IMG/VR virus record: IMGVR_UViG_3300045988_183576
Coordinates: 1-36,794 of that record
Strand: one strand, 5' to 3'
DNA: 36,794 nucleotides
From: a virus
In this document: piece by piece, positions 120 through 36,794 of the stretch
Numbering within the stretch: the stretch's first letter is position 1
Layout of the letters: each line of letters begins with the position of its first letter
The notes under the pieces: generated by a model
Databases searched by the model: none
What the model was told of the DNA's origin: nothing
What the model saw: the letters and a program-made list of their open reading frames with translations, nothing else
Translations under genes and position numbers: made by a program

Positions 120-130
120 AGGGCAAATAA
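2..130 (+). CDS. 3' part of the junction-spanning 125-aa hypothetical protein (same gene as 36428..36794)
   Basis: With 36676 equated to base 1, the frame opened at ATG 36428 continues from base 2 (FMSDLDEIILADKLVKKYNMFFSRCDYLCDTDSTLIMSEQGK) to TAA at 128-130. Confidence 0.65.
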   Translation, partial: FMSDLDEIILADKLVKKYNMFFSRCDYLCDTDSTLIMSEQGK

Positions 131-152: not shown

Positions 153-344
153 ATGGACAATCAATATACAGTTAGGTCAACGATTAGACAGCTACGCGCC
201 TCTACGGGGCTATCGCAAAGTAAATTCGCTTTGCTTGTTCACGTACCTGTTGCCACTATCCAGACTTGGGAGCAAGGGACGAGAAAGCCACCCGAATATA
301 TTCTCTTTCTGATTGAACAGTATCTTAAATCTTTGCAAAAGTAA
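153..344 (+). CDS. Small XRE-family helix-turn-helix protein (antitoxin-like or Aca-like autoregulator)
   Basis: 63 aa. The stretch IRQLRASTGLSQSKFALLVHVPVATIQTWEQGTRKPPEYI matches the HTH_3 signature with the WEQG.R.P tail seen in HigA/MqsA-type antitoxins and small phage regulators. It starts 22 nt after the upstream ORF. Confidence 0.75.
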   Translation: MDNQYTVRSTIRQLRASTGLSQSKFALLVHVPVATIQTWEQGTRKPPEYILFLIEQYLKSLQK

Positions 345-348
345 TATT

Positions 349-388
349 AAAAGGAGCAGATTTTTTCGTCTGCTCCTTTGTTTGTTTT
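349..388. terminator. Bidirectional rho-independent terminator shared by convergent transcription units
   Basis: 9-bp stem AGGAGCAGA (352-360) / TCTGCTCCT (369-377) with an 8-nt loop. TTGTTTGTTTT follows on the plus strand and TTTTAATATT on the minus strand. Confidence 0.75.
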
Positions 389-549: not shown

Positions 550-750
550 TTATTCGTAATTGAGGTAATCAATTGCCTCTTTGGCGTTGCTTATTCTTGC
601 TTCGCCGTCTTTTACAAGCACCACGAGAGGCAAGCCTACGCAAGGATTACCGGTATAAACGGGAATATACACCTCGTAACCGTTCCACGATTTGCCTTTT
701 TTATAAGACCTTGCGCCGAGTTCTTCGACGAGTGTTTTTATTTCATCCAT
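550..750 (-). CDS. Hypothetical protein (66 aa)
   Basis: ORF track. It overlaps the end of the upstream gene by 8 nt (coupled) and has no recognisable motif. Confidence 0.6.
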   Translation of the reverse strand: MDEIKTLVEELGARSYKKGKSWNGYEVYIPVYTGNPCVGLPLVVLVKDGEARISNAKEAIDYLNYE

Positions 751-1654
751 TTTTCTTTACTCCTTTCATGATTTTATCGCAGAATTTTTCATCGATTGTG
801 CAATCGGTCAAATCCATTTTTTTGAAACCATAACCACGAGATATGAACGAATATGCCGATTTGCCACTATACTTCGTGTTCGTTTGCGGGTCATATAAAT
901 ACGTCCCTTGTCCGTCGTTCATCATCAGGACGATATGTCCCGAACTTCTGCCTTTCCAAGCCCAACGCAAAGCATACGTCTTTCCGGGTTCGCTCATTAA
1001 CGAGCCGTCGCTACTTTCTTGCTTCGGGTGATTTCCGTCTTTATCGAGATAAGCAAGCGATACGTTATGCGATAGGTCTGCTATGTTTTTGTTGTTGAGG
1101 TTCGGCAATGCTTTTACATCGTAGCCGAGTTTTCGAGCAACAAATGTTGCCACGCAAGTTTGACAGTTGGTTACATAGCCGATTTGCTCCGTTCCATAGT
1201 ACGGATTTACGCTTCCGCTGTCCGCCTGTTCAAATGTCATCGGCTTACCTTTTGCGGCACCGGCAATCTTACCGTCCTCGTGAATATAATTTTTATCCGG
1301 ATTATGCTCAGGGTTTTTGAGTTGCGCTTTCTTGATTTCGGCACGTTTTTTCCACATGGCAACGCGCCCGGGGTTCTCTTTGCGCCACTTTTTATCTTTC
1401 TCGCGCTTTTCTTCTTTCAGGTGTTTGGCGTATTCTTCGTCAACATCTTCGACATATCCGCCGTTCTTTAATGCGTTCCAAGCGTCACGAGGTGTCCACC
1501 AATCCTGTATCTTTATGCCTTTTGCTTTGCACAGTGCGAACGGCAAACGAAGTGCTTTGTTTCCGCCGCCCTCGGGGTCGTTTTTGAAATCGTCGTCATC
1601 ATTGTTTTCGCCCATTCCGTCCATAAGTCCGGTCTTTTTGAACTCTTCCGCCAT
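743..1654 (-). CDS. Two-domain protein: novel N-terminal module (paralogous to 35633..36280) plus C-terminal papain-fold Cys-His domain (CHAP/NlpC-P60/Tox-PL-like)
   Basis: 303 aa from ATG 1654, with GGAG 8 nt upstream; the track start at 1699 lacks an RBS. Catalytic-type Cys lies at a helix start (TNCQTCVATFVARKLGY), followed by His in a beta-strand (SSGHIVLMM) and then Asp (YLYDPQ). Confidence 0.6.
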   Translation of the reverse strand: MAEEFKKTGLMDGMGENNDDDDFKNDPEGGGNKALRLPFALCKAKGIKIQDWWTPRDAWNALKNGGYVEDVDEEYAKHLKEEKREKDKKWRKENPGRVAMWKKRAEIKKAQLKNPEHNPDKNYIHEDGKIAGAAKGKPMTFEQADSGSVNPYYGTEQIGYVTNCQTCVATFVARKLGYDVKALPNLNNKNIADLSHNVSLAYLDKDGNHPKQESSDGSLMSEPGKTYALRWAWKGRSSGHIVLMMNDGQGTYLYDPQTNTKYSGKSAYSFISRGYGFKKMDLTDCTIDEKFCDKIMKGVKKNG

Positions 1655-1689
1655 AATGCTTCTCCATAACAAAAAAGCATTACCTTTGT

Positions 1690-1718
1690 ATTTTAACACA
1701 TATTTTACTATGTGTCAA
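1690..1718 (-). promoter_or_regulatory. Sigma-70-type promoter for the 743..1654 unit, with a palindrome in the spacer
   Basis: Minus strand reads TTGACA (1718-1713), 17 nt, TGtTAAAAT extended -10 (1698-1690). The palindrome ACACATA-N6-TATGTGT (1696-1715) overlaps the spacer and -35. A second extended -10, TGTTATAAT, lies at 1790-1782. Confidence 0.55.
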
Positions 1719-1802
1719 TGGTAACGCTTATCTTTTCGCAACTTTTTCTCTTTCGGTCGCTTTATATTTCTTCACGCTACCATTATAACACATATTTTCT
1801 CC

Positions 1803-11518: not shown

Positions 11519-11547
11519 TTGACATTTTTTATAAACTTTGCTATAAT
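11519..11547 (+). promoter_or_regulatory. Perfect consensus sigma-70 promoter firing rightward (toward CI-like gene and int)
   Basis: TTGACA (11519-11524), 17 nt, TATAAT (11542-11547). Confidence 0.65.
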
Positions 11548-11586: not shown

Positions 11587-11615
11587 ATTATATAGGAAAA
11601 TTTCCTAAATGTCAA
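11587..11615 (-). promoter_or_regulatory. Perfect consensus sigma-70 promoter firing leftward (toward cro-like early operon)
   Basis: Minus strand reads TTGACA (11615-11610), 17 nt, TATAAT (11592-11587). Confidence 0.65.
11594..11606. promoter_or_regulatory. Candidate operator palindrome AGGAAA-A-TTTCCT inside the spacer of the leftward promoter
   Basis: 13-bp perfect palindrome, read directly from the sequence. Confidence 0.45.
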
Positions 11616-11670: not shown

Positions 11671-12021
11671 ATGGATATTATTTTGAATAAAATTTATGAG
11701 TTAATGGAGAAACAAGGGCTTAACGCTCGAAACTTTGAGATTAAAGTGGGTATTTCCAATGGTTCTATACAAAGTTGGAAAACAGGGAAAGCCGCCCCCT
11801 CTCGGCGCACGCTTGCAAGAATTTCCGAAGCGTTTGATTTGCCCGAGAATTATTTTTACACGGAGCCTGCTCCGAAAGCGGCTCGTACACAATCAAGTAA
11901 CTTAACATCACAAGAGATAGAAATGCTCGCTCTGTTCAGGCAACTGACAGCAATACAGCAGGGAAAAGTTCTCGGCTATGCCGAAGCGTTTCTTAAAAAC
12001 TCGCAAAGCGATGTAGGTTAA
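11671..12021 (+). CDS. CI-like repressor (XRE HTH, no peptidase domain)
   Basis: 116 aa: LMEKQGLNARNFEIKVGISNGSIQSWKTGKAAPSRRTLARISEAFDLPENYF. GGAG RBS. It lies upstream of int on the same strand. Confidence 0.75.
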   Translation: MDIILNKIYELMEKQGLNARNFEIKVGISNGSIQSWKTGKAAPSRRTLARISEAFDLPENYFYTEPAPKAARTQSSNLTSQEIEMLALFRQLTAIQQGKVLGYAEAFLKNSQSDVG

Positions 12022-12045: not shown

Positions 12046-13284
12046 GTGGAAGATGATACAAGGAGATTGCTCGACCTTTTGGCGGAGGCTTTACAAAAAG
12101 CCTCGTTATTGTGTGGCAAAATAATAGGAAACGACGATTTCGCAAATGAACCGATTACGCGTGAATCGTCTTTTCGTATTGTAAGTGAGGGCGGAAAGCC
12201 GTCCCCTTATCCCGACGTTACTTTCAGGTTATTATCGGATATTCAGGCGGAGGAAAATATGTCTGTTTATCTACCTTTCGGGACAGGCTCCATTCGGAAA
12301 CGTTCCCGAGAAAACAAAAATAGCCGCTACACGTGGTGGGAGGGTAGATTCCAACGCCACACGGTAACGGCTAAAACTCAAAAGGAGGTTATTGAAAAAT
12401 TAAAGAATATCCCTTTAAAAGAAAAGGAAAAAACGGAACGCGTCACAAAAAAAGGCTCGTCTTTTATCGAATGGGTTAATTATTGGTATGAAACATATAA
12501 AGAACCGTACTTACGCTCGAACTCGAAAAGGGGCTACATGGACGCATTTAATAAGATAAAGACAATCGCAACGCCTATGGAACAACTTACGCCCGATATT
12601 TTGCAACAATTCTTTATTTCTATAAACGGCGAAAACTCACGGCGTAAAGTATTCGACGTTGTTAATTCCGCTCTTCGTCAAGCGGTCATTTCGGAGAAAA
12701 TACGCAAGAACCCTTGCGAACTCTTGAAACGCCCGAAAGTTAAGTCGGAGCATAAACGTGCTTTTACTGCGGAAGAACAAACGGCGATTCTTACGGCTTT
12801 ACCCGAAAAGTATAGTCGGCTCTTTACCGTCCTTTGCTGTACGGGTATGCGCATAAGCGAATTTTTGGCTCTCACGCCCGACGACATCGGCGACGACGAA
12901 ATACGGGTTAATAAGATGATGAACCGCGACGGTATCATCGAACACGACACGAAAAACCGCACGTCACAACGTTTTATCAATTATGACGAGAGTTTACGAG
13001 AAAAACTCGACTACTGCGTTTCGGAAAATTATACCTACAACGCCGTTAAACTCGCTTTCGGCAGAACTTTTGTAAAATTAGGCTTTACCGACGTTTCCGT
13101 TCATTCTACACGGCATACTTTTGCCACAATGTGCCATTTAACGCAAATTGACGACCTTTTAACCAAAAAATGGCTCGGTCACGCTACTTTATCGATGACA
13201 AAAGACGTTTATACGCATTTTATGAAACGCGAAAAATCGCCTTTTACTGATTATTTTGTAAAACTTAAACGCTTTGAGGGCTGA
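12046..13284 (+). CDS. int: Tyrosine recombinase / phage integrase
   Basis: Catalytic residues: R in CTGMRISEFLAL, H-x-x-R in HSTRHTFAT, H and Y in LGHATLSMTKDVYTH. GTG start at 12046 follows GGAGGAG. An alternative in-frame ATG at 12259 follows GGAGGA and would give a canonical ~341-aa protein. Confidence 0.9.
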   Translation: MEDDTRRLLDLLAEALQKASLLCGKIIGNDDFANEPITRESSFRIVSEGGKPSPYPDVTFRLLSDIQAEENMSVYLPFGTGSIRKRSRENKNSRYTWWEGRFQRHTVTAKTQKEVIEKLKNIPLKEKEKTERVTKKGSSFIEWVNYWYETYKEPYLRSNSKRGYMDAFNKIKTIATPMEQLTPDILQQFFISINGENSRRKVFDVVNSALRQAVISEKIRKNPCELLKRPKVKSEHKRAFTAEEQTAILTALPEKYSRLFTVLCCTGMRISEFLALTPDDIGDDEIRVNKMMNRDGIIEHDTKNRTSQRFINYDESLREKLDYCVSENYTYNAVKLAFGRTFVKLGFTDVSVHSTRHTFATMCHLTQIDDLLTKKWLGHATLSMTKDVYTHFMKREKSPFTDYFVKLKRFEG

Positions 13285-13297
13285 ATTTTTCTAAATC

Positions 13298-13333
13298 AGT
13301 ACCCAAAGTAGTACCCAAAGTAGTACCCAAAGT
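13298..13333 (+). repeat. Three tandem 12-nt repeats AGTACCCAAAGT (candidate integrase arm-type sites, P arm)
   Basis: Copies at 13298-13309, 13310-13321 and 13322-13333, directly after the int stop. Confidence 0.8.
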
Positions 13334-13354
13334 TTTCCCTTTAAAATAAAAAAT

Positions 13355-13380
13355 AGCCCGTTCTCATAAGAAAACAGGCT
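13355..13380 (-). terminator. Possible leftward terminator hairpin between int and the attP core
   Basis: AGCC(C)GTT / AAC(A)GGCT imperfect stem. On the minus strand it is followed by ATTTTTTATTTT. Confidence 0.3.
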
Positions 13381-13417
13381 AAAAAAAATAAGTAGTCGTT
13401 TACATAACCACTTATTT

Positions 13418-13462
13418 TGGTGGACGATCAGGGGCTCGAACCCTGGACACCCTGATTAAGAG
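13418..13462 (-). other. attP core: 45-nt 3' portion of a tRNA-Lys(CTT) gene (anticodon loop to CCA)
   Basis: Minus strand reads CTCTTAA (anticodon loop, CTT), TCAGG, GTGTC, CAGGG-TTCGAGC-CCCTG (T arm), ATCGTCC-A-CCA. The upstream sequence cannot form the anticodon-stem 5' strand or a D arm. Confidence 0.75.
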
Positions 13463-13531
13463 TGAACAAAAAGTACTGAAAAACGCTTAAAATCTACTAA
13501 AAACTCCTGATTTTTCCGATAATAACATTTC

Positions 13532-29316: not shown

Positions 29317-30586
29317 GGGTTTGAGTTCCGTCTGCCTTAGAGGTCAAAGTGGAAGCCCGTGCGACCTTGTTGTCGTTGTCGTACGAGAGGTTGGGCAGAA
29401 CCATATTGATTGCTTTGAGAATAGCAACGATAGTGGTTTTTGCGTTGTCCACGTTGGAAGTGGCACCCGTCCACTCGGTACCGGACACGACGCATTTAAG
29501 AGCGGTACCGGAAAGGCAACGAACGCCCATATTGACCTTAGGCTGAATAATGACGCCCTGAGTATCGGGGTCGTCTACGGTTTTGAACGAAGTGGGACGC
29601 AGTCCGCGAATGGTTGCGTTTGCAGGCGCAATCATTGCCTGAATATCGTTGAGATATCCTATAACGGTTGCGTCGTCGGTATCGTCAAGTCCCAAGTAAT
29701 ACCAAGCGGAATTTTTGACCTGCTGGCTTACTTCGTACAGAGGCATACCGTCGAGCCAACCGACATAGCCTTTCTGGAAGTCCGCAACGGTCTTTTTCTC
29801 GGAAGTGAACGCGTTCATTCCGCCGCCTGCGAGCATACGGGTTGCAACGTCGGAAGCAGACATCGAAGCGGTTTCGGAAAGGTCTACAAGGTAAATCGGG
29901 TCGAACAGGAACGCCTGTCTTGCGTCTGCCGGGAAGTAATCCGCATACAGCTTGCTGTCGCCTTTGCTTACTTTTGCGTTGGAAATCTTGAACGCACGGA
30001 TTGCGCCCGTCTTGTTGGTCGAATCGTAAGTGTACTTTTCGAGTGCCGCTTTGACTTCTGCGTCGGTAATATCCGTCGCCGCCGCCGAAGAGCCTTTTGC
30101 GTAAGCCGCCGCGAACGATTCGGTGAAGAACGCAAACAGCTGTGCTGCGAACGTATAACCGTTTACGTTGATAGCAATATCCTGCTCAATCTGTTCACGA
30201 CAAATCTGCTCGAACGATTCGTTGAGGCTTGCCGCTCCGGTCATTTCGATTTCGTCCTCAGAAACGGCAATGTTGAAGTCGTATCTTTTGAGGATATCGA
30301 TAGTGAAACGTCTTGACAGAACGTGATTACGCTGTTTGTTCTCGTTGGGGGCGTTGTTGGTGTTAGCCCATTCGCCGTTGGAGCTTGCGCCGCGCATGCG
30401 GAATCTGCCGCCGATAGGAATCGGGACGAAAATATCAATCATTGCGGCTTTGGTCTGGTCGGGGGTGATAAATCTGTCGGTGATACCGAATCCGTCCTTG
30501 TGAACGATGTCCGGATACAGATTCTTGTAAACGGTTTTAGATACCAGTTTTGCGACCTGCTGGTTGTTAAGGTTAAAAAGTGACAT
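29309..30586 (-). CDS. Putative major capsid protein (425 aa)
   Basis: It lies immediately after the scaffold gene and has a typical size. No motif-level confirmation was possible. Confidence 0.6.
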   Translation of the reverse strand: MSLFNLNNQQVAKLVSKTVYKNLYPDIVHKDGFGITDRFITPDQTKAAMIDIFVPIPIGGRFRMRGASSNGEWANTNNAPNENKQRNHVLSRRFTIDILKRYDFNIAVSEDEIEMTGAASLNESFEQICREQIEQDIAINVNGYTFAAQLFAFFTESFAAAYAKGSSAAATDITDAEVKAALEKYTYDSTNKTGAIRAFKISNAKVSKGDSKLYADYFPADARQAFLFDPIYLVDLSETASMSASDVATRMLAGGGMNAFTSEKKTVADFQKGYVGWLDGMPLYEVSQQVKNSAWYYLGLDDTDDATVIGYLNDIQAMIAPANATIRGLRPTSFKTVDDPDTQGVIIQPKVNMGVRCLSGTALKCVVSGTEWTGATSNVDNAKTTIVAILKAINMVLPNLSYDNDNKVARASTLTSKADGTQTLA

Positions 30587-30607
30587 ATTTTTTATTCTCC
30601 TGAAAAA

Positions 30608-31375
30608 TTATTTGTGCATTTTTAATCCGTCGCAATCGTCATACAGGCAGTTATGTTTAACCGCTCCGCCGATTTTGGACGAATACCCGAACGCACCCTC
30701 GGTTTTTGCCTTTAACTTCTGATTTTCAGCCTGTAACGCAAGTATTTTCGCGTTCAAGCCGTCAATAATAGCCTCGTAATCGGCAGGCATGTCCGATTCT
30801 TCTACGGCAGGTTCGTTGCGCATTTCGGGAATGTCGTCGGCAACCTCTTCGGTTTCTTCGGTTTCTTCGGGAGCGGTTTCCGCTATCGCTTCGGTTTCTC
30901 CGTCGCCCGTGTCGTCGCCCTCGTCCGCTTCAACGCCTTTCTGCATAACCGGTTCTTCTTCCGTTTCGGGAGCTTCCGTTCCGACCTCTTCGGTTTCCTC
31001 TTCTTCGGTTTCCTCTTCTTCGGTTTCCTCTTCTTCGGTAACTTCTTCGGTTTCTTTCTTAGGCTCCGTATTTTCGCCATTTTCGGGCGTTTCTTCTTCT
31101 GCGGTCGTTTCCTCGGTTGCTTGCGTTTCGTCGGTTGCAACTTCCTTTTCTGCGCTGTTTTCGCCGTTTCCGTCCGTTTCGGGTTCTTCCTTAACTTCGT
31201 CCTTGACTTCCGTTTTCTGTACGGGGTCTGCAACCTTGTTTTCGGGTTCTTCCTTAACTTCGGGAGCGGTTACGGTTTCCTCGCCGAGTGCGCTTTTAAG
31301 TTCGCTCTTTACCTCGGGAGGTGCTTTTTTCAGTTCGGCAATCAATTTATCCAACATTGATTTTATCAGTGCCAT
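30608..31375 (-). CDS. Putative scaffolding protein (255 aa), extremely acidic Glu/Thr-rich with C-terminal coiled coil
   Basis: It lies between the portal and capsid genes and contains EEETEEEETEEEETEEV repeats and LNAKILALQAENQKLKAK. Confidence 0.6.
   Translation of the reverse strand: MALIKSMLDKLIAELKKAPPEVKSELKSALGEETVTAPEVKEEPENKVADPVQKTEVKDEVKEEPETDGNGENSAEKEVATDETQATEETTAEEETPENGENTEPKKETEEVTEEEETEEEETEEEETEEVGTEAPETEEEPVMQKGVEADEGDDTGDGETEAIAETAPEETEETEEVADDIPEMRNEPAVEESDMPADYEAIIDGLNAKILALQAENQKLKAKTEGAFGYSSKIGGAVKHNCLYDDCDGLKMHK
30991..31035 (-). repeat. Three perfect tandem 15-nt repeats (CGGTTTCCTCTTCTT on plus) encoding EETEE units
   Basis: Copies at 30991-31005, 31006-31020 and 31021-31035, with degenerate copies flanking them. 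Confidence 0.85.
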
Positions 31376-33053
31376 TAGTCAGCCCTCCTTGTGCTGTTTT
31401 ATTTAACGTCGCATTTGTGTTTTGGGTCGTCGGTTTTGGGTTCTCCGCCGCTCCGCTCTCTTGCGGTAAACCGCCGCCCATTGGCATTTGCGCTTTGTTA
31501 CTGTGAGAAATAATAAATTCTTCGAGGTCTTTTGTTTCCCTGTACGAGTTAGTGCCGAGTATCTTTTCCGCAAGCATACGAGCGGTAACCTTTCCGCCGT
31601 TGTACAATTCTGCGTACTGCTGTATCTCTTCCGCCTGTATCTCTTGGCTTACGGGCATAATACGCATTTCGGGAGCCTCGACCCCGTAATAATGAAAATA
31701 GATATCAATCAAGTCCTGCAAGGGCTGTGAGATGATACCTATCTTGTCTTTTATGAACGTTTCGGTGTTACTTCGTCCCGCTTTGATTTCCGTAGCGGAT
31801 TTCTGCGTCGTGCCGTCGGATAGCCAACTTGCTATTGTAGTACTCGATAGCCCGAGTGCCGCCGCCGTGTCGTTCAAAATATTCTGTTTTTGCGTTTTTA
31901 TCTCGTCCGCTCGTAGTTCAGGCTGTATCGGGAGCGGCTTGCCGTCTTTCTCGCCGTTAAGCAAATTCTCGTAGTAATTGAAGATTATCGGGTCAAGCGC
32001 ACGCCGTCTTTCTTCGGGGTCGTTCGGATTACTGTTGCAGTCGTCCATCATTACCCTTGCGCGTGCCGCATATACCTCCACACGCTCGAAGAACTTTAAC
32101 TGCTCATACTGATACAGTTCGTTTTGTAGAAAGTCCGCAAGCGGCATACCGAACGGCATTTTCGGAAACGACGGAATGTTACGAGTGAATTTAATCAGCC
32201 TTACGCCTAAATCGTCGTCGAACGGCAACAGCGTGCAGCTCTGCCACATGGTAGCGTACTGCCTTGACGAATCATTCGTCATCGTGTATGCGTCGGTTTT
32301 GTCTATATCGATTTCGCCGTAATCGCGTTTAAGGCTGTTTCTTACTTCGGGCGGAACGTCTGCCCAACGCACGGGGTCTGTCGGAACAGCGTCGTATGTA
32401 ATATTCGTCGTGGTCTGATAAACCGTATAATGTACCATAGGGAAACGCTTTTTAACACTTCCGATAGTCGTGTACTTGAAGAACCGCTCCTCGCATAAGT
32501 GATACTCTGTCGTCGCCGATATAGTGTCGTGATAAGTCGCTATAAAGCACTTAACGCGCTCTATATCTCCGTAGCCGTCAACTTCGATAAAGAACTTGTC
32601 CATTGGTATTGCTTCAAACCGCAAATCGCCGTTACCGTCGCGATTGAGCTTTAACAGCCCCGTACCGCCTGCCTCGCAGAAATCGTACGCTTCGACTTTT
32701 GCATTGTCGAAATTGCTCTTTTTCTTGAACTTCGTATCGATTATGTTGTTCGTGTCGGGGTTATACGAGTTAAGCACGACGGGATTCGAGAACAAAAGGC
32801 TCTTTATTCCGTTGCCTATCTTCTGCAAGAATTTTGTCGGTATAACGCCGTATTCAAGATTGTGAAAGCCCTCTATCCAGCCCGTATACATTCCGACAAG
32901 CGGCTTGATATACGAAGCGTAAAAAGTGTAATAACGCGGAGCGGCAAGCAAGTACGTGTTTGAATACTGCACGACCTTGAAACTGTCTGCGGATAATTCG
33001 CTCCCAACTCCGAGCGGCATAAAATTTTTGTCGTCTATAATTTCCATAAGCAC
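31347..33053 (-). CDS. Putative portal protein (568 aa)
   Basis: Called from size and its position downstream of terL and upstream of the scaffold gene. Confidence 0.65.
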   Translation of the reverse strand: MLMEIIDDKNFMPLGVGSELSADSFKVVQYSNTYLLAAPRYYTFYASYIKPLVGMYTGWIEGFHNLEYGVIPTKFLQKIGNGIKSLLFSNPVVLNSYNPDTNNIIDTKFKKKSNFDNAKVEAYDFCEAGGTGLLKLNRDGNGDLRFEAIPMDKFFIEVDGYGDIERVKCFIATYHDTISATTEYHLCEERFFKYTTIGSVKKRFPMVHYTVYQTTTNITYDAVPTDPVRWADVPPEVRNSLKRDYGEIDIDKTDAYTMTNDSSRQYATMWQSCTLLPFDDDLGVRLIKFTRNIPSFPKMPFGMPLADFLQNELYQYEQLKFFERVEVYAARARVMMDDCNSNPNDPEERRRALDPIIFNYYENLLNGEKDGKPLPIQPELRADEIKTQKQNILNDTAAALGLSSTTIASWLSDGTTQKSATEIKAGRSNTETFIKDKIGIISQPLQDLIDIYFHYYGVEAPEMRIMPVSQEIQAEEIQQYAELYNGGKVTARMLAEKILGTNSYRETKDLEEFIISHSNKAQMPMGGGLPQESGAAENPKPTTQNTNATLNKTAQGGLTNGTDKINVG

Positions 33054-33054
33054 C

Positions 33055-33408
33055 TCAGATTATCAACTCTTTCAGGTACGAGAGAAAGAGCGGGTTTTTC
33101 TTTATGTCGTCTATACTCTCAACTTCCGCGTCAAACTCGGGGTGTTTCTTCCAAATACGGTCTAACCGCTCCCCGATATAGATTTCTTCCGAGTGTTTCT
33201 CCAATATCTCGCCTATCTTGATATTTACCACTTCGGTTATCTTTCTGCAACGTCTTTCGGATATAGCACGCTTATTCGTTCGCACAAGCTCCAAATGCGG
33301 ATAAAACTCTATGCTTATTCCCGGGTATGCTTTTTCTACCCATTCGCGTATCTCTTTCTCCGCACGCGTGTATGCTATATCTCCGTTCAAAAACTCTCTT
33401 AATCTCAT
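33055..33408 (-). CDS. Hypothetical protein (117 aa) wedged between terL and portal
   Basis: Start trimmed to ATG 33408 (TAATG overlap with the terL stop). The longer track ORF to 33759 overlaps terL out of frame. Confidence 0.5.
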   Translation of the reverse strand: MRLREFLNGDIAYTRAEKEIREWVEKAYPGISIEFYPHLELVRTNKRAISERRCRKITEVVNIKIGEILEKHSEEIYIGERLDRIWKKHPEFDAEVESIDDIKKNPLFLSYLKELII

Positions 33409-34844
33409 TACAGTTCTCCATATTTCAGTTTTTCGAGGAACGCTTCCGCTCCGTTGTCCGCGTCGTAAATAGCGCGTCTTTCCGGGAACGACAAACGATA
33501 CGGATTCGCAAGCACGGTCATAACCGCGTACTGCAATGCGTCCGTACAGTCGTTCGGAATGGTCGGGTCTATCTTCTTGTTGTCCAAGTACCGCAACGCT
33601 TTTATCTGTTTGACAAGCATAGCGTTTGAATACTTCGGCGAATACCTGTCTACGTTTACGACTTTCAATATCCCGTTCGCAAACGCCGTGTTTACTTCGT
33701 CCAGTTGTTCCTCTTTCTCGCCTTTGGTTGTGTAAGGCTTTAATAACACGTTTCTCCAACGCATAAAATTGCGGTCTGTCCGTTTCATAACCGCCATTTG
33801 TCTGTACATACCGCTTGCGCAGTCAAATACCATTATTACCGGTATCGCACGCTCGGGATTGAAATGCGCCTGTATGTAGTCGAGATACTCCGCTACGATA
33901 GCGCACCGCTCCGTAAGTGCAGGCTTTACGGGTAATTCCTTGCAAGAGAGATACAATCCCTCGTTGACTTTCATATTCCCGTTTCTCTGCACCATAACGG
34001 CTTCGCCCGCTATTGCGTCCTTGCTTTCTGCGTCGTCTATGCCGATAACGATAGAGTGGAGCATATCGCCCGTTTTTTGCGGAGCGGCAAGCAACTCTTC
34101 TCTCAGTATATAATGCTCTCTTTCGATAAACGAATGAAATGTTTGTTCCCAGCCCGCTACGTCGAGGTCGCCTAAGTATATTTGAGCGTACGACACCGGG
34201 TCGGTTTTTCTCATCATCTCGATTTCGTGAATTAGTGCGTCAGGAAGCCACGCTATAATATCGAGATATGTCGGCTTTATGACCGTCCACTCGTCATCTT
34301 CCGACTTGACTTTGTAGTAGTCATCAAACCACATCGCCGCACGGTCGGGGTTTCCTGCAAGGATAACCTTGCTATGCCCTGCTTTCATTTGTCGTAAGAA
34401 CGTGGATAAACAATTATCCAAAATGCCCTTGTTATGCAACTTCTGCACTTCGTCCATTACGAACAACGATACCGGACGTATGAGCTTCTTCGACTTCGTT
34501 GCGTTCACGTTGTCTAACTTATTCGTCTGAACGGCATACGAGCGTATCTGATTACGCGCGCCTTTCATATAGCACGACTTAGCACTGAATACCCAATCGT
34601 CCGCAAGGTTCTCGCTTTCGAGGAAAGACTGAAACTCGCTCAATACGCCGTCGCCCGCGTTCGTAAGACTGTCTACACCTATCGCCACGTCATAATCGGG
34701 GAAATTGATATAATACAACCACAATATACGACCTAACGCCGACGATTTGCCGCACGCTCTTGGTGCATACCATAGGTTTTTACAACACTTCGGCGTGGAC
34801 ATATCGAACGCAGGTTCATATACGTCCGCAATCTCAACTTTCAT
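33408..34844 (-). CDS. terL: Terminase large subunit
   Basis: Walker A YAPRACGKSSALGRI, Walker B LFVMDEV, and a C-terminal nuclease-type acidic motif (VIGIDDA). 478 aa. Confidence 0.9.
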   Translation of the reverse strand: MKVEIADVYEPAFDMSTPKCCKNLWYAPRACGKSSALGRILWLYYINFPDYDVAIGVDSLTNAGDGVLSEFQSFLESENLADDWVFSAKSCYMKGARNQIRSYAVQTNKLDNVNATKSKKLIRPVSLFVMDEVQKLHNKGILDNCLSTFLRQMKAGHSKVILAGNPDRAAMWFDDYYKVKSEDDEWTVIKPTYLDIIAWLPDALIHEIEMMRKTDPVSYAQIYLGDLDVAGWEQTFHSFIEREHYILREELLAAPQKTGDMLHSIVIGIDDAESKDAIAGEAVMVQRNGNMKVNEGLYLSCKELPVKPALTERCAIVAEYLDYIQAHFNPERAIPVIMVFDCASGMYRQMAVMKRTDRNFMRWRNVLLKPYTTKGEKEEQLDEVNTAFANGILKVVNVDRYSPKYSNAMLVKQIKALRYLDNKKIDPTIPNDCTDALQYAVMTVLANPYRLSFPERRAIYDADNGAEAFLEKLKYGEL

Positions 34845-35292
34845 CGCTGACGGTCGGACTTTGCTCTCCGACTATTTTCGGGTCGGTTTCCGTTTTAGAA
34901 CGCTTGCTCTTGTCTACAAACTCTATTTCAACCTTACGGAGCGGTTCTTCTTCCGCACCTACTACTTTGGTGGACGGATTCTCCCCGATAATATCACGCA
35001 GATATTCAAGGCACTTTCTGTCGCCTTTCAAAGCTCCCGCTGTTACTTGCGCACACCACATAGCATAGCCGTCGCCGCTTGTGAACTCGTCCGTTACGGG
35101 ATTGTTGAATTTGAACTGCTCTTTAAGAAGCAATTTCATTGTTTCTCTTAGCGTTTTTTTCTCTTTGCGAACCTGTCCCGACTTAATGCCGCCCGCCTTG
35201 CCTTTTGCTCGCGCTTCCTCGGCGGTTAGCGGCTGTCCTAACCATTCGGCTCTGTACCGCTCCTTCGGCTCTGAATTTTTCTTTTTTGACAT
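34834..35292 (-). CDS. Putative terminase small subunit
   Basis: 152 aa directly upstream of and overlapping terL. The basic N-terminus KGKAGGIKSGQVRKEKKTLRE is typical of small terminases of Firmicute phages. Confidence 0.55.
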   Translation of the reverse strand: MSKKKNSEPKERYRAEWLGQPLTAEEARAKGKAGGIKSGQVRKEKKTLRETMKLLLKEQFKFNNPVTDEFTSGDGYAMWCAQVTAGALKGDRKCLEYLRDIIGENPSTKVVGAEEEPLRKVEIEFVDKSKRSKTETDPKIVGEQSPTVSDES

Positions 35293-35296
35293 AGCC

Positions 35297-35632
35297 TTAC
35301 TCCTTATGTTCGTTTTTGTATAAATCCCATATAATTAAACGGTCTTGAAGCGTTCCTGCATACGCTTGCATGTGTTTGAGCTGTTGTTTCATAAGCTCAC
35401 GCATTTCAGGCGTTACAACGCGTTCCGGTATCTTTCTGCCGTATAGAAAGCAAGTCAATTTAAGTATCTTTTCGTGTAACTCGTCTAACTCTTGCTCTAC
35501 GCGCTCTTTTGCTGTATTCGGATAGACTTTCTCCTTTATCTCTTCTTCCGTTGATATTATTCCTCGCCCGCTCGGATTTGCACCCATCATGCGTTCCATG
35601 TCTTCGCGTGTTAAATTTGTTGCCATAATCAT
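35297..35632 (-). CDS. Hypothetical helical protein (111 aa)
   Basis: ORF track. It lies between the first late gene and terS. Confidence 0.55.
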   Translation of the reverse strand: MIMATNLTREDMERMMGANPSGRGIISTEEEIKEKVYPNTAKERVEQELDELHEKILKLTCFLYGRKIPERVVTPEMRELMKQQLKHMQAYAGTLQDRLIIWDLYKNEHKE

Positions 35633-36280
35633 TTACTCCTTATAGACGTATTTATGAGTTAATTGCTCATACTCCGTTAAGTCTTTTATTGCATATCTTG
35701 CATAACCTTTGTCATCAAGATACAAATAGCCGTTTGCGTTGATTTTGAAAGCCCCGCCCTTTGTTTCTTGTATGTCGTACCAATGCCGGTCGTTTGCGGT
35801 TTTATTGTCTATCGATACAAAAAAGCGTTTGCCGTTGACATCTGCTGTAAAGTAATAGCCAATGCCGTATTTAGACGGATTGACCCACACTTCTTTTAAG
35901 CTGTACGGTTTTACGGCTTTCCATTTATCTTTGTGTATTCTTGCGTGCGTTTCATTGTTTTGAACTACCGAATACATGGTTTCTTTTTTCGGTGCTTCGT
36001 TTTGTGCCGCTTCCTTTTGAGGTTGCTTGTCCGGTTGCGTATCGGTTGTCTTGTCTTTCTTCAAATTGTCGTAAAACTCTTTGTATTCCTTTTCGACTTC
36101 ACCGATATGCCCGGCGTTCTTCAAAGCCTCCCACGCGTCACGAGGTGTCCAGCCTTTTTGTATCGCTATTCCTTTTTGTTCGCATAAAGCAAACGGCAAA
36201 CGGTACTTATTCGCGGTTTCGTGCGTTTCTTCGCTTTCGCCCGCTCCGTCCATTAAACCGATTTTCTTAAATTCATCCAT
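35633..36280 (-). CDS. Two-domain protein (215 aa): N-terminal module paralogous to 743..1654 plus an unrelated beta-rich C-terminal domain; first gene of the late operon
   Basis: MDEFKKIGLMDGAGE...NKYRLPFALCEQKGIAIQKGWTPRDAWEALKNAGHIGEVEKEY aligns with MAEEFKKTGLMDGMGE...NKALRLPFALCKAKGIKIQDWWTPRDAWNALKNGGYVEDVDEEY. GGAGAAG RBS. Confidence 0.7.
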   Translation of the reverse strand: MDEFKKIGLMDGAGESEETHETANKYRLPFALCEQKGIAIQKGWTPRDAWEALKNAGHIGEVEKEYKEFYDNLKKDKTTDTQPDKQPQKEAAQNEAPKKETMYSVVQNNETHARIHKDKWKAVKPYSLKEVWVNPSKYGIGYYFTADVNGKRFFVSIDNKTANDRHWYDIQETKGGAFKINANGYLYLDDKGYARYAIKDLTEYEQLTHKYVYKE

Positions 36281-36350
36281 AGGTTCTTCTCCAAATAAAA
36301 AAACAACCCCTTTTTTGAGATTGTTTTTTTAGATTTTTATTAAAAAACGC

Positions 36351-36379
36351 TTGACAAATGTCATTCAATGTTGTATAAT
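36351..36379 (+). promoter_or_regulatory. Perfect consensus sigma-70 promoter of the plus-strand moron
   Basis: TTGACA (36351-36356), 17 nt, TATAAT (36374-36379). Confidence 0.65.
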
Positions 36380-36399
36380 ATAGTTGCAAAACAACAAAT

Positions 36400-36415
36400 G
36401 ACCGCAACGGCGGTC
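36400..36415 (+). promoter_or_regulatory. Inverted repeat GACCGC-AACG-GCGGTC in the moron 5' leader (operator or mRNA hairpin)
   Basis: It lies between the -10 and the GAGGAG SD at 36416-36421. Confidence 0.4.
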
Positions 36416-36427
36416 GAGGAGTAAAAA

Positions 36428-36794
36428 ATGAAAAGTTCTTATAATTTGAATCACGAAATCATCTCTGTCAATGATTTCCCGTACGGAAAAACGCAAGCCG
36501 TAATCGTCAAAGTTGGAAAAAGGCAATACTACATTGATGTAGACAAATGTTCTCAGTCCATAACATTATCTGTGTATGATGTAGTTTCTAAGGCGCGCAA
36601 AACCTTTTCAAAGTACGATGCAAATCTGCGTTTTATAACGCTGAGTACAAAAAATCTGCATTATATCGATAGACAATTTATGAGCGATTTGGACGAGATT
36701 ATTTTGGCTGATAAATTGGTAAAAAAATACAACATGTTTTTTTCTCGTTGCGATTATCTGTGCGACACCGACTCCACATTGATTATGTCTGAGC
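36428..36794 (+). CDS. 5' part of the junction-spanning 125-aa hypothetical protein (no stop in window; continues at 2..130)
   Basis: ATG 36428 follows GAGGAG. Hand translation gives MKSSYNLNHEIISVNDFPYGKTQAVIVKVGKRQYYIDVDKCSQSITLSVYDVVSKARKTFSKYDANLRFITLSTKNLHYIDRQFMSDLDEI..., open to the last base. It is absent from the ORF track because it lacks a stop in the window. Confidence 0.65.
   Translation, partial: MKSSYNLNHEIISVNDFPYGKTQAVIVKVGKRQYYIDVDKCSQSITLSVYDVVSKARKTFSKYDANLRFITLSTKNLHYIDRQFMSDLDEIILADKLVKKYNMFFSRCDYLCDTDSTLIMSE
36676..36794. repeat. Right copy of the 119-bp terminal overlap (identical to 1-119)
   Basis: Direct comparison of both ends. Confidence 0.95.

Follow-up and report, generated by a model that had tools for sequence, protein, structure and literature searches.

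The DNA studied here, called the window below, is the whole 36,794-nt stretch of IMG/VR virus record IMGVR_UViG_3300045988_183576, and our subject is a short plus-strand operon that crosses its contig junction and encodes a protein of 125 amino acids (AA) followed by a 63 AA helix-turn-helix (HTH) protein of the XRE family. We give a probability of roughly 50% to the reading that this unit is an accessory slot for an anti-defence operon of the acr-aca (anti-CRISPR and anti-CRISPR-associated) kind, carried by a temperate phage of gut Clostridia. The first-pass annotation of this DNA had put forward two models, a toxin-first toxin-antitoxin (TA) or abortive-infection pair and an acr-aca operon; the exchange of cargo genes within a conserved frame and the match of the HTH protein to Aca10 favour the second, and a TA pair now appears unlikely. 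Under the acr-aca-like reading, a host sigma-70 promoter of consensus strength would drive immediate expression of whichever small cargo gene or genes occupy the slot, and the last gene would supply a minimal, dimeric, Aca10-like HTH protein that feeds back on the operon. Its target would be an inverted repeat within or close to the promoter or leader, and a second target may be the hairpin of the leader, next to the ribosome-binding site (RBS), in the manner of Aca2 and Aca1. The cargo genes would be swapped by recombination inside the conserved frame.

To describe the slot, we compared about 40 related metagenomic loci, which were drawn from IMG/VR relatives, from an exact-pattern metagenome scan for the 3' end of the HTH gene, and from look-ups of a 55 AA variant of the HTH protein (P0088). 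Contigs that encode the identical 125 AA protein proved to be near-identical phages with the same arrangement. In the sister phages, the promoter, leader hairpin, RBS, HTH gene, and terminator are kept and the genes inside this frame differ. The promoter is retained in all sister phages irrespective of cargo, with small changes in the spacer, and the terminator is conserved together with the HTH gene. Nucleotide homology to the sister phages (blastn) extends through the promoter to about 36383-36398, is lost shortly before or after the leader hairpin, and picks up again at window positions 158-180, corresponding to codons 2-10 of the HTH gene, from where it reaches past the terminator hairpin's start to cover the terminator. 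In phages that are otherwise syntenic, an HTH protein of 93-100% identity follows at least five unrelated cargo sets, and in some no cargo at all.

The commonest cargo is a pair of genes encoding 106 and 117 AA (L024, L054, L061, L075, and others), which also occurs with the 106 AA gene truncated. The other states are a single 125 AA gene (the window and L001-L010), three genes of 73, 53, and 109 AA (L011), three genes of 106, 118, and 71 AA (L026), a single 92 AA gene (L027, L056, L060, and L083), and an essentially empty slot (L057 and L077). One and the same 55 AA HTH protein, P0088 (present in 171 index blocks), was found with four cargo states. None of the alternative cargo proteins matched a protein family, a PDB structure, or a PADLOC defence model, and three of them are very acidic, with isoelectric points (pI) of 4.1-4.5. 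Many anti-CRISPR proteins (Acrs) are likewise small and very acidic. As a separate observation, internal cargo genes (L011 9735-9790 and 9950-10000; L024 440-495) are each preceded by a GC-rich hairpin, then AAACGC(G/A)AG(G)CAAGGAG and the ATG, and L011 contains the same junction element of about 36 nt twice; such elements could be recombination linkers or signals for RNA processing or stability.

The unit itself is a compact operon with one promoter, one terminator, and a small HTH gene that is co-directional with the cargo gene and immediately downstream of it (Table 1). All features listed in the first-pass annotation were recovered at their given positions, among them the perfect TTGACA-17-TATAAT promoter and the succession of a 125 AA open reading frame (ORF), a 22-nt gap (131-152), and the 63 AA HTH gene. 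Perfect sigma-70 sites occur three times in the window, at 36351 (+), 11519 (+), and 11587 (-), and sites with at most one mismatch were observed four times against an expectation of 0.29. At the far end, the terminator-like hairpin has 12 pairs by our count and is followed by a T-run; its G+C-rich core, GGAGCAGA/TCTGCTCC, measures 8 bp, where a 9-bp stem had been reported earlier. Away from the operon, the other two perfect promoters (11519-11547 on the plus strand and 11587-11615 on the minus strand) stand face to face just upstream of the genes for a CI-like HTH protein and the integrase, and this pair is presumably the lysis-lysogeny switch.

This layout resembles that of acr-aca operons, especially acrIC7-acrIC6-aca10 of Pseudomonas citronellolis and those with aca1 or aca2, in which a strong promoter precedes one to three small unrelated genes with an HTH gene of about 55-65 AA in last place. 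In both, related elements share the HTH gene and differ in the genes upstream of it, and the stretch from the promoter to the first RBS contains an inverted repeat or hairpin (PMC9410881; PMC13551039). In the aca1, aca2, aca10, and aca12 operons, a DNA motif in the promoter is combined with an RNA hairpin in the 5' untranslated region (UTR), and binding of this RNA has been demonstrated for Aca2 and Aca1 (PMC13551039). The combination of promoter and leader hairpin in the 5' UTR of our operon thus matches the published architecture.

The 6-bp inverted repeat abutting GAGGAG, also named in the first-pass annotation, was confirmed as a single perfect copy in the window. A hairpin lies directly 5' of the RBS at the same position in every leader variant, the GAGGAG itself is identical in all of them, and an RNA hairpin was predicted for all variants with z-scores of -1.5 to -3.2. 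A search of Rfam with the leader hairpin returned no match. The arms read GACCGC/GCGGTC in the window, GACCGA/TCGGTC in L011, and GGACGA/TCGTCC in L024, L026, and L027. Variants compatible with G.U pairing are GGGCGA/TCGTCC (L057 and L083) and GGACGA/TCGTTC (L025, L054, L061, and L081), and in L077 the innermost pair is mismatched (GGACGA/CCGTCC). Between the two main leader types, both sides of the stem have changed at three positions, and two single changes retain G.U pairing, with too few independent variants for statistics. These pairs were read directly from the sequences, as MAFFT placed the two leader types out of register and formal covariation counting was not possible. The G.U-compatible variants favour a constraint at the RNA level, and the constant outer GAC...GTC would still be compatible with a DNA operator contacted at its outer bases. 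Leaders of the GGACGA type occur with a 106 AA or a 92 AA first gene and those of the GACCGx type with a 125 AA or a 73 AA gene. Since each leader type is thus found with different first cargo genes, the hairpin is part of the frame, not of the cargo.

The 63 AA protein matches PF01381 (HTH_3) with 35.6 bits (gathering cut-off 23; E 9.5e-9), and its best PHROG is phrog_2104, whose function is unannotated (E 1.9e-12). The best solved relative is Aca10 (PDB 7XI5), with 20 of 46 residues identical (about 43%) at E 1.5e-4, followed by Atu1735 and the antitoxin HigA2 (E 7e-4). Residues identical to those of Aca10 include Q22, H30, Q37, W39, E40, G42, and R44. In Aca10, Q22, Q37, and R44 are important for DNA binding and H30 lies in the dimer interface (PMC9410881). 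We take the HTH protein to be a putative repressor of its own operon. Its gene is under strong purifying selection, with a ratio of nonsynonymous to synonymous substitution rates (dN/dS) of 0-0.19, and the comparison of the window with L024 gave seven synonymous differences and no nonsynonymous ones.

More distant homologues of the HTH protein occur in unannotated gut-phage records in mixed contexts that gave no information on function, and two further settings were observed. Six loci (L058, L062, and L085-L088) come from bacterial chromosomes in which genes for Spo0A_C and EamA proteins are also present. Next to tRNA genes, these loci retain a gene for an HTH protein of 78-82% identity, the truncated gene upstream of it (MLEKCT...), and, on the minus strand, genes of 107, 96, and 126 AA; an Aca-like repressor kept by the host in this way might conceivably silence the operons of incoming phages. 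In L028-L045 (for example L028 2968-4390), from many Clostridia metagenome-assembled genomes (MAGs), an HTH domain of 50-55% identity forms the N-terminus of a protein of about 216-225 AA that is followed by a conserved 244 AA protein, the two genes making up a conserved module. Neither the fusion protein nor its partner had a Pfam match beyond the HTH.

The 63 AA HTH protein had suggested a toxin-first type II TA or abortive-infection pair, with the 125 AA protein as toxin and the HTH protein as antitoxin and autorepressor. The gene order and the 22-nt gap are those expected of such a pair, as in HigB2-HigA2 and MqsR-MqsA, where the first gene likewise precedes the HTH gene by a short gap, and the HTH protein belongs to the same XRE subfamily. 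The WEQG.R.P signature (W-E-x-G-x-R-x-P), which had been taken as typical of HigA/MqsA-type antitoxins, is indeed present, and there are sub-threshold matches to the MqsA family, YiaG, and NadS in NCBIfam and to HigA2. In addition, Pseudomonas phage Shamal encodes a 45%-identical HTH protein that bears the annotation of antitoxin in a toxin-first pair. However, only the DNA-binding part of these antitoxins is covered. Our protein aligns to positions 69-117 of 131 in the MqsA profile, 65-117 of 127 in TIGR03830, and residues 44-86 of 103 in HigA2, and at 63 AA (55 AA in relatives) it therefore contains no toxin-neutralising segment, neither the N-terminal one of HigA2 nor the zinc-binding domain of MqsA. 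Nor does the 125 AA protein belong to a RelE-, ParE-, or MqsR-like family or fold, and the gene in this position is interchangeable with unrelated ones.

The association of the two genes is loose. The 125 AA family and this type of HTH protein co-occur in three independent lineages, as a fixed pair might: the window with L011; L013-L015, in which one gene separates the two and the promoter is homologous; and L016, in which the HTH gene directly follows the 125 AA homologue and its product is 50% identical to ours, including the motif WETGRRKPPEY. Each gene also occurs without the other, however, with no HTH gene near the 125 AA homologues of L017, L021/L066, L023, L068, and L070, and the HTH gene standing alone or paired with five unrelated cargo sets. 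The prediction of co-occurrence thus stood for these lineages and not as a rule. With no neutralising segment, no toxin fold, and no fixed gene pair, the TA reading fails three tests that define such systems, and we consider it very improbable.

We regard the 125 AA protein as a candidate immune inhibitor rather than a toxin. As the first-pass annotation had remarked, it has no recognisable motif, and we obtained no match in Pfam, PHROGs, NCBIfam, or PADLOC. A word-indexed search of 5.8 billion proteins returned the protein itself, a 109 AA variant of 87% identity, and nothing else, and an exhaustive phmmer search of 1.84 billion cluster representatives gave 76 relatives at E <=1e-3. Nearly all of these are 95-115 AA long and 25-47% identical to the query, and they define a family of about 105 AA with the conserved motifs NLN, GKT, GRKxYxxDIxK, SKY, and LDRxFFENIxEIxxAQ. 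No Pfam domain was found in any member, and a profile search of the PDB with the family alignment gave no match. Two giant repetitive proteins (P0062 and P0072) that had appeared as relatives were rejected as compositional or repeat artefacts once their sequences were read. The family is restricted to mobile elements, being found in phages, prophages, and elements associated with insertion sequences, and its genes are often the first behind a near-consensus promoter. The 125 AA gene, like the HTH gene, is under purifying selection (dN/dS 0.18, window versus L011). In favour of an anti-defence role, one homologue adjoins an ArdC-N-like gene, and no cargo protein matches a PADLOC defence model.

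Several relatives of the protein deserve mention in their own right. A 43%-identical homologue in L070 (1962-5330) lies in a phage region with Ro60/TROVE-vWA, ArdC-N-like, and crAss001_48-related proteins, and the spacer of its promoter contains a perfect palindrome, TATGTAATTACATA. Five relatives (P0013, P0044, P0067, P0052, and P0058) carry an extra N-terminal domain of about 80 AA (RYFAN...LTRYSYPDK) or a partial tandem duplication, and the N-terminus of P0052 resembles the 92 AA alternative cargo (MKYYEVVE...TGT).

Structural modelling with AlphaFold2 (AF2) from the single sequence was useless (predicted local distance difference test score, pLDDT, 32), and only an alignment of 62 sequences gave a confident model (pLDDT 87.7; predicted template-modelling score, pTM, 0.74). 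The model consists of four to five strands and a long helix, with the final 20 residues disordered, and has a beta-beta-beta-beta-alpha topology (strands 20-29, 32-40, 45-51, and 69-74; helix 82-101). Foldseek comparison of this model with the PDB and BFVD, a check that the first-pass annotation had proposed, found nothing below E 0.02 and template-modelling (TM) scores of at most 0.34, hence no match at E<0.001.

The topology of the model is that of PUR repeats and Whirly-like folds (Pur-alpha and the bacterial DUF3276), from which it differs by an extra loop with the conserved SKY motif and by the N-terminal NLN strand. Sub-threshold Pfam matches (E>0.01) to DUF3276 in two family members and to PurA in one point in the same direction, as do the Pur-alpha repeats (5fgo and 8cht) among the top Foldseek matches, which are below significance (E 0.4-0.7; TM 0.21-0.25), and an hhalign alignment of GRKxYxxDIxK with NKRFYLDVKQN over 25-29 columns (P 0.002; probability 12%), for which the PURA sequence was checked against 8CHT. 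With three weak independent signals, none of them significant, we regard the likeness to PUR repeats as no more than a lead. A speculative extension, to which we assign a rather low likelihood, is that the 125 AA protein would found a previously unrecognised family of basic, PUR-repeat-like nucleic-acid binders encoded by phages. As anti-defence effectors, these proteins might, for instance, sequester a guide RNA or a trigger made of single-stranded nucleic acid, and the leader hairpin would be the RNA target of the Aca10-like HTH protein.

The same features could describe a regulatory module intrinsic to the phage, in which a PUR- or Whirly-like nucleic-acid binder and the HTH protein control development, for instance by acting in the divergent intergenic region on the expression of late or packaging genes. 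The basic character of the 125 AA family, the topology of the AF2 model, and the agreement of weak signals from different methods on PUR repeats would all suit such a module, as would the position of the operon promoter, which diverges from the gene that opens the packaging/late block. However, the PUR signals are all sub-significant, and the cargo is both dispensable and replaceable in sister phages whose late genes are unchanged, which makes this reading improbable.

Another possibility is a lysogenic-conversion or defence moron, in which cargo expressed from the prophage protects the lysogen by superinfection exclusion or abortive infection and the HTH protein is a local regulator. Phage morons similarly have their own promoter and terminator, lie on the opposite strand between two phage operons, and vary in content among relatives. 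In our operon, the consensus sigma-70 promoter and dedicated terminator fit this description, and placement on the strand opposite the flanking lytic operons would insulate it from lytic transcription. Hot spots of swapped cargo are also seen in prophage defence islands, and the HTH gene persists in prophage remnants of Clostridia chromosomes. In contrast, classical morons are not known to have a conserved autoregulator gene in a fixed frame. A conserved small HTH gene 3' of stacked small genes is the pattern of acr-aca operons and not the usual one of defence morons (PMC13551039; PMC9410881; and established knowledge). The cargo proteins (52-125 AA) are moreover soluble, have no enzymatic or membrane features, and remain unmatched in PADLOC. 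We think a moron of this kind unlikely, and it is the main rival because anatomy alone cannot separate offence from defence.

Several points weigh against the acr-aca-like reading that we prefer. No cargo protein, the 125 AA protein included, matches a known Acr or other anti-defence family or structure in Pfam, PHROGs, NCBIfam, or the PDB, or, for the 125 AA protein, in Foldseek searches, in which respect the operon differs from the published ones; the anti-defence function is accordingly an inference. The 125 AA family is basic (median pI 9.2; 8.7 for the protein itself), unlike DNA-mimic Acrs. The strong promoter, private terminator, and opposite strand also fit a moron expressed in the lysogen. 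The similarity of the HTH protein to Aca10 is modest and of the same order as that to HigA2 and Atu1735, and the phage Shamal homologue carries its antitoxin annotation. In contrast to the published operons, no operator could be defined in the -35/-10 region or spacer that is common to all promoter variants with the same HTH protein, and the inverted repeats overlapping the -35 element vary in spacing, from TGACA-2-TGTCA in the window to TTGACA-6-TGTCAA in L024. As a further difference from the published operons, the host belongs to the Gram-positive gut Clostridia and not to the proteobacteria.

The window as a whole is consistent with this setting. Bases 1-119 are identical to 36676-36794, and this exact terminal direct repeat indicates a circularised genome of 36,675 bp, so that the two-gene unit truly crosses the junction. 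The repeat is most likely the k-mer overlap of a circular MEGAHIT assembly, because sister contigs carry names of the form k119_..., which would make 36,675 bp the true genome length. The gene content is that of a temperate siphovirus-type phage, with a tyrosine integrase, a CI-like HTH protein, a Terminase_3 large subunit, a crAss001_48-related protein, and a RinA/ArpU-like late regulator; the G+C content is 43.7%. Related loci came from human gut metagenomes, an intact prophage copy is present in GCA_900767265.1 (contig CAAFYO010000030.1), and remnants of decayed prophages adjoin tRNA genes in MAGs of Clostridia (UMGS1795; contigs encoding Spo0A), and we conclude that the host belongs to the human-gut Clostridia. 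Isolate phages in INPHARED gave no match, either by megablast of window positions 30000-36794 or by tblastn with the 125 AA protein and family member P0014.

One type of remnant (L053 6638-7687; also L046 and L063-L065) consists of scattered phage fragments beside a tRNA array in a Clostridia chromosome (a 171-kb contig; UMGS1795). The fragments comprise the last 23 or so HTH codons with the terminator, part of window 1608-1748, and the integrase-adjacent region (window 13306-13463), which there overlaps tRNA-Lys; this is a decayed prophage and suggests integration at tRNA-Lys. Host-chromosome occurrences of the HTH 3' end could have indicated an attachment site inside the operon; this idea was rejected, because these copies accompany other scattered phage fragments, including the integrase-proximal region, and are thus pieces of degraded prophages beside tRNA genes.

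One minus-strand block ends on one side of the operon and the packaging block begins on the other. The operon is, as the first-pass annotation had it, the sole plus-strand unit outside the lysogeny module, the other convincing plus-strand genes being those for the HTH repressor and the integrase. The description of its two neighbours as paralogues also held: the 215 AA and 318 AA proteins share an N-terminal domain of about 80 AA (49% identity over 84 AA; E 1e-22). At the DNA level, these flanking genes have a 120-nt segment at 72-74% identity and, as direct repeats, could promote recombination around the slot. The C-terminal domain of the 318 AA protein is of a papain-fold, glutamine-deamidase-like type. 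Just upstream of its gene, a promoter with one mismatch (1690-1718, minus strand) contains in its spacer the operator-like palindrome ACACATA-N6-TATGTGT (7-bp arms), where a phage regulator could have a second target. On the other side, the divergent intergenic region between the 215 AA gene and the operon promoter holds an AT-rich inverted repeat (36296-36331) with 11-nt arms, TAAAAAAACAA / TTGTTTTTTTA, which might act as a weak terminator in both directions or have a regulatory role.

Table 1. Coordinates of the operon elements and of selected neighbouring genes in the window.
Feature	Position	Strand	Remark
Sigma-70 promoter, TTGACA (36351-36356)-17-TATAAT (36374-36379)	36351..36379	+	12/12 consensus positions
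Inverted repeat GACCGC-AACG-GCGGTC (6-4-6), 5' UTR hairpin	36400..36415	+	Candidate operator and/or RNA motif for the HTH protein
RBS GAGGAG	36416..36421	+	6 nt upstream of the ATG
125 AA cargo ORF, first part	36428..36794	+	ATG at 36428; continues at 120-130
125 AA cargo ORF, end	120..130	+	Last codons and TAA stop (128-130); bases 1-119 duplicate 36676-36794
63 AA XRE-family HTH gene, 3' end of operon	153..344	+	DNA-binding domain only; PF01381 match
Bidirectional intrinsic terminator hairpin	350..379	.	Common to the convergent minus-strand genes
CI-like HTH repressor	11671-12021	+	
Integrase	12046-13284	+	
318 AA flanking gene	743-1699	-	Gln_amidase-like
215 AA flanking gene	35633-36280	-	

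The type of locus described here is already known and its architecture will not surprise a specialist; what it adds is an unannotated 125 AA family with no recognisable fold match, together with further candidate effectors. If none of the readings that we favour holds, the locus would be an ordinary moron hot spot. To our knowledge, anti-defence loci have seldom been described in gut Clostridia phages, and the frame of promoter, leader hairpin, Aca-like HTH gene, and terminator offers a search anchor for anti-defence genes in these phages. The slot supplies at least seven uncharacterised small proteins as candidate inhibitors of immunity, namely the 125 AA family and the cargo proteins of 106, 117, 92, 73, 71, and 53 AA. 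Should the HTH protein bind the leader hairpin as RNA, the recently described translational control by HTH proteins would be broadened, and the dual DNA and RNA control exerted by Aca2 and Aca1 would extend to phages of Gram-positive gut anaerobes.

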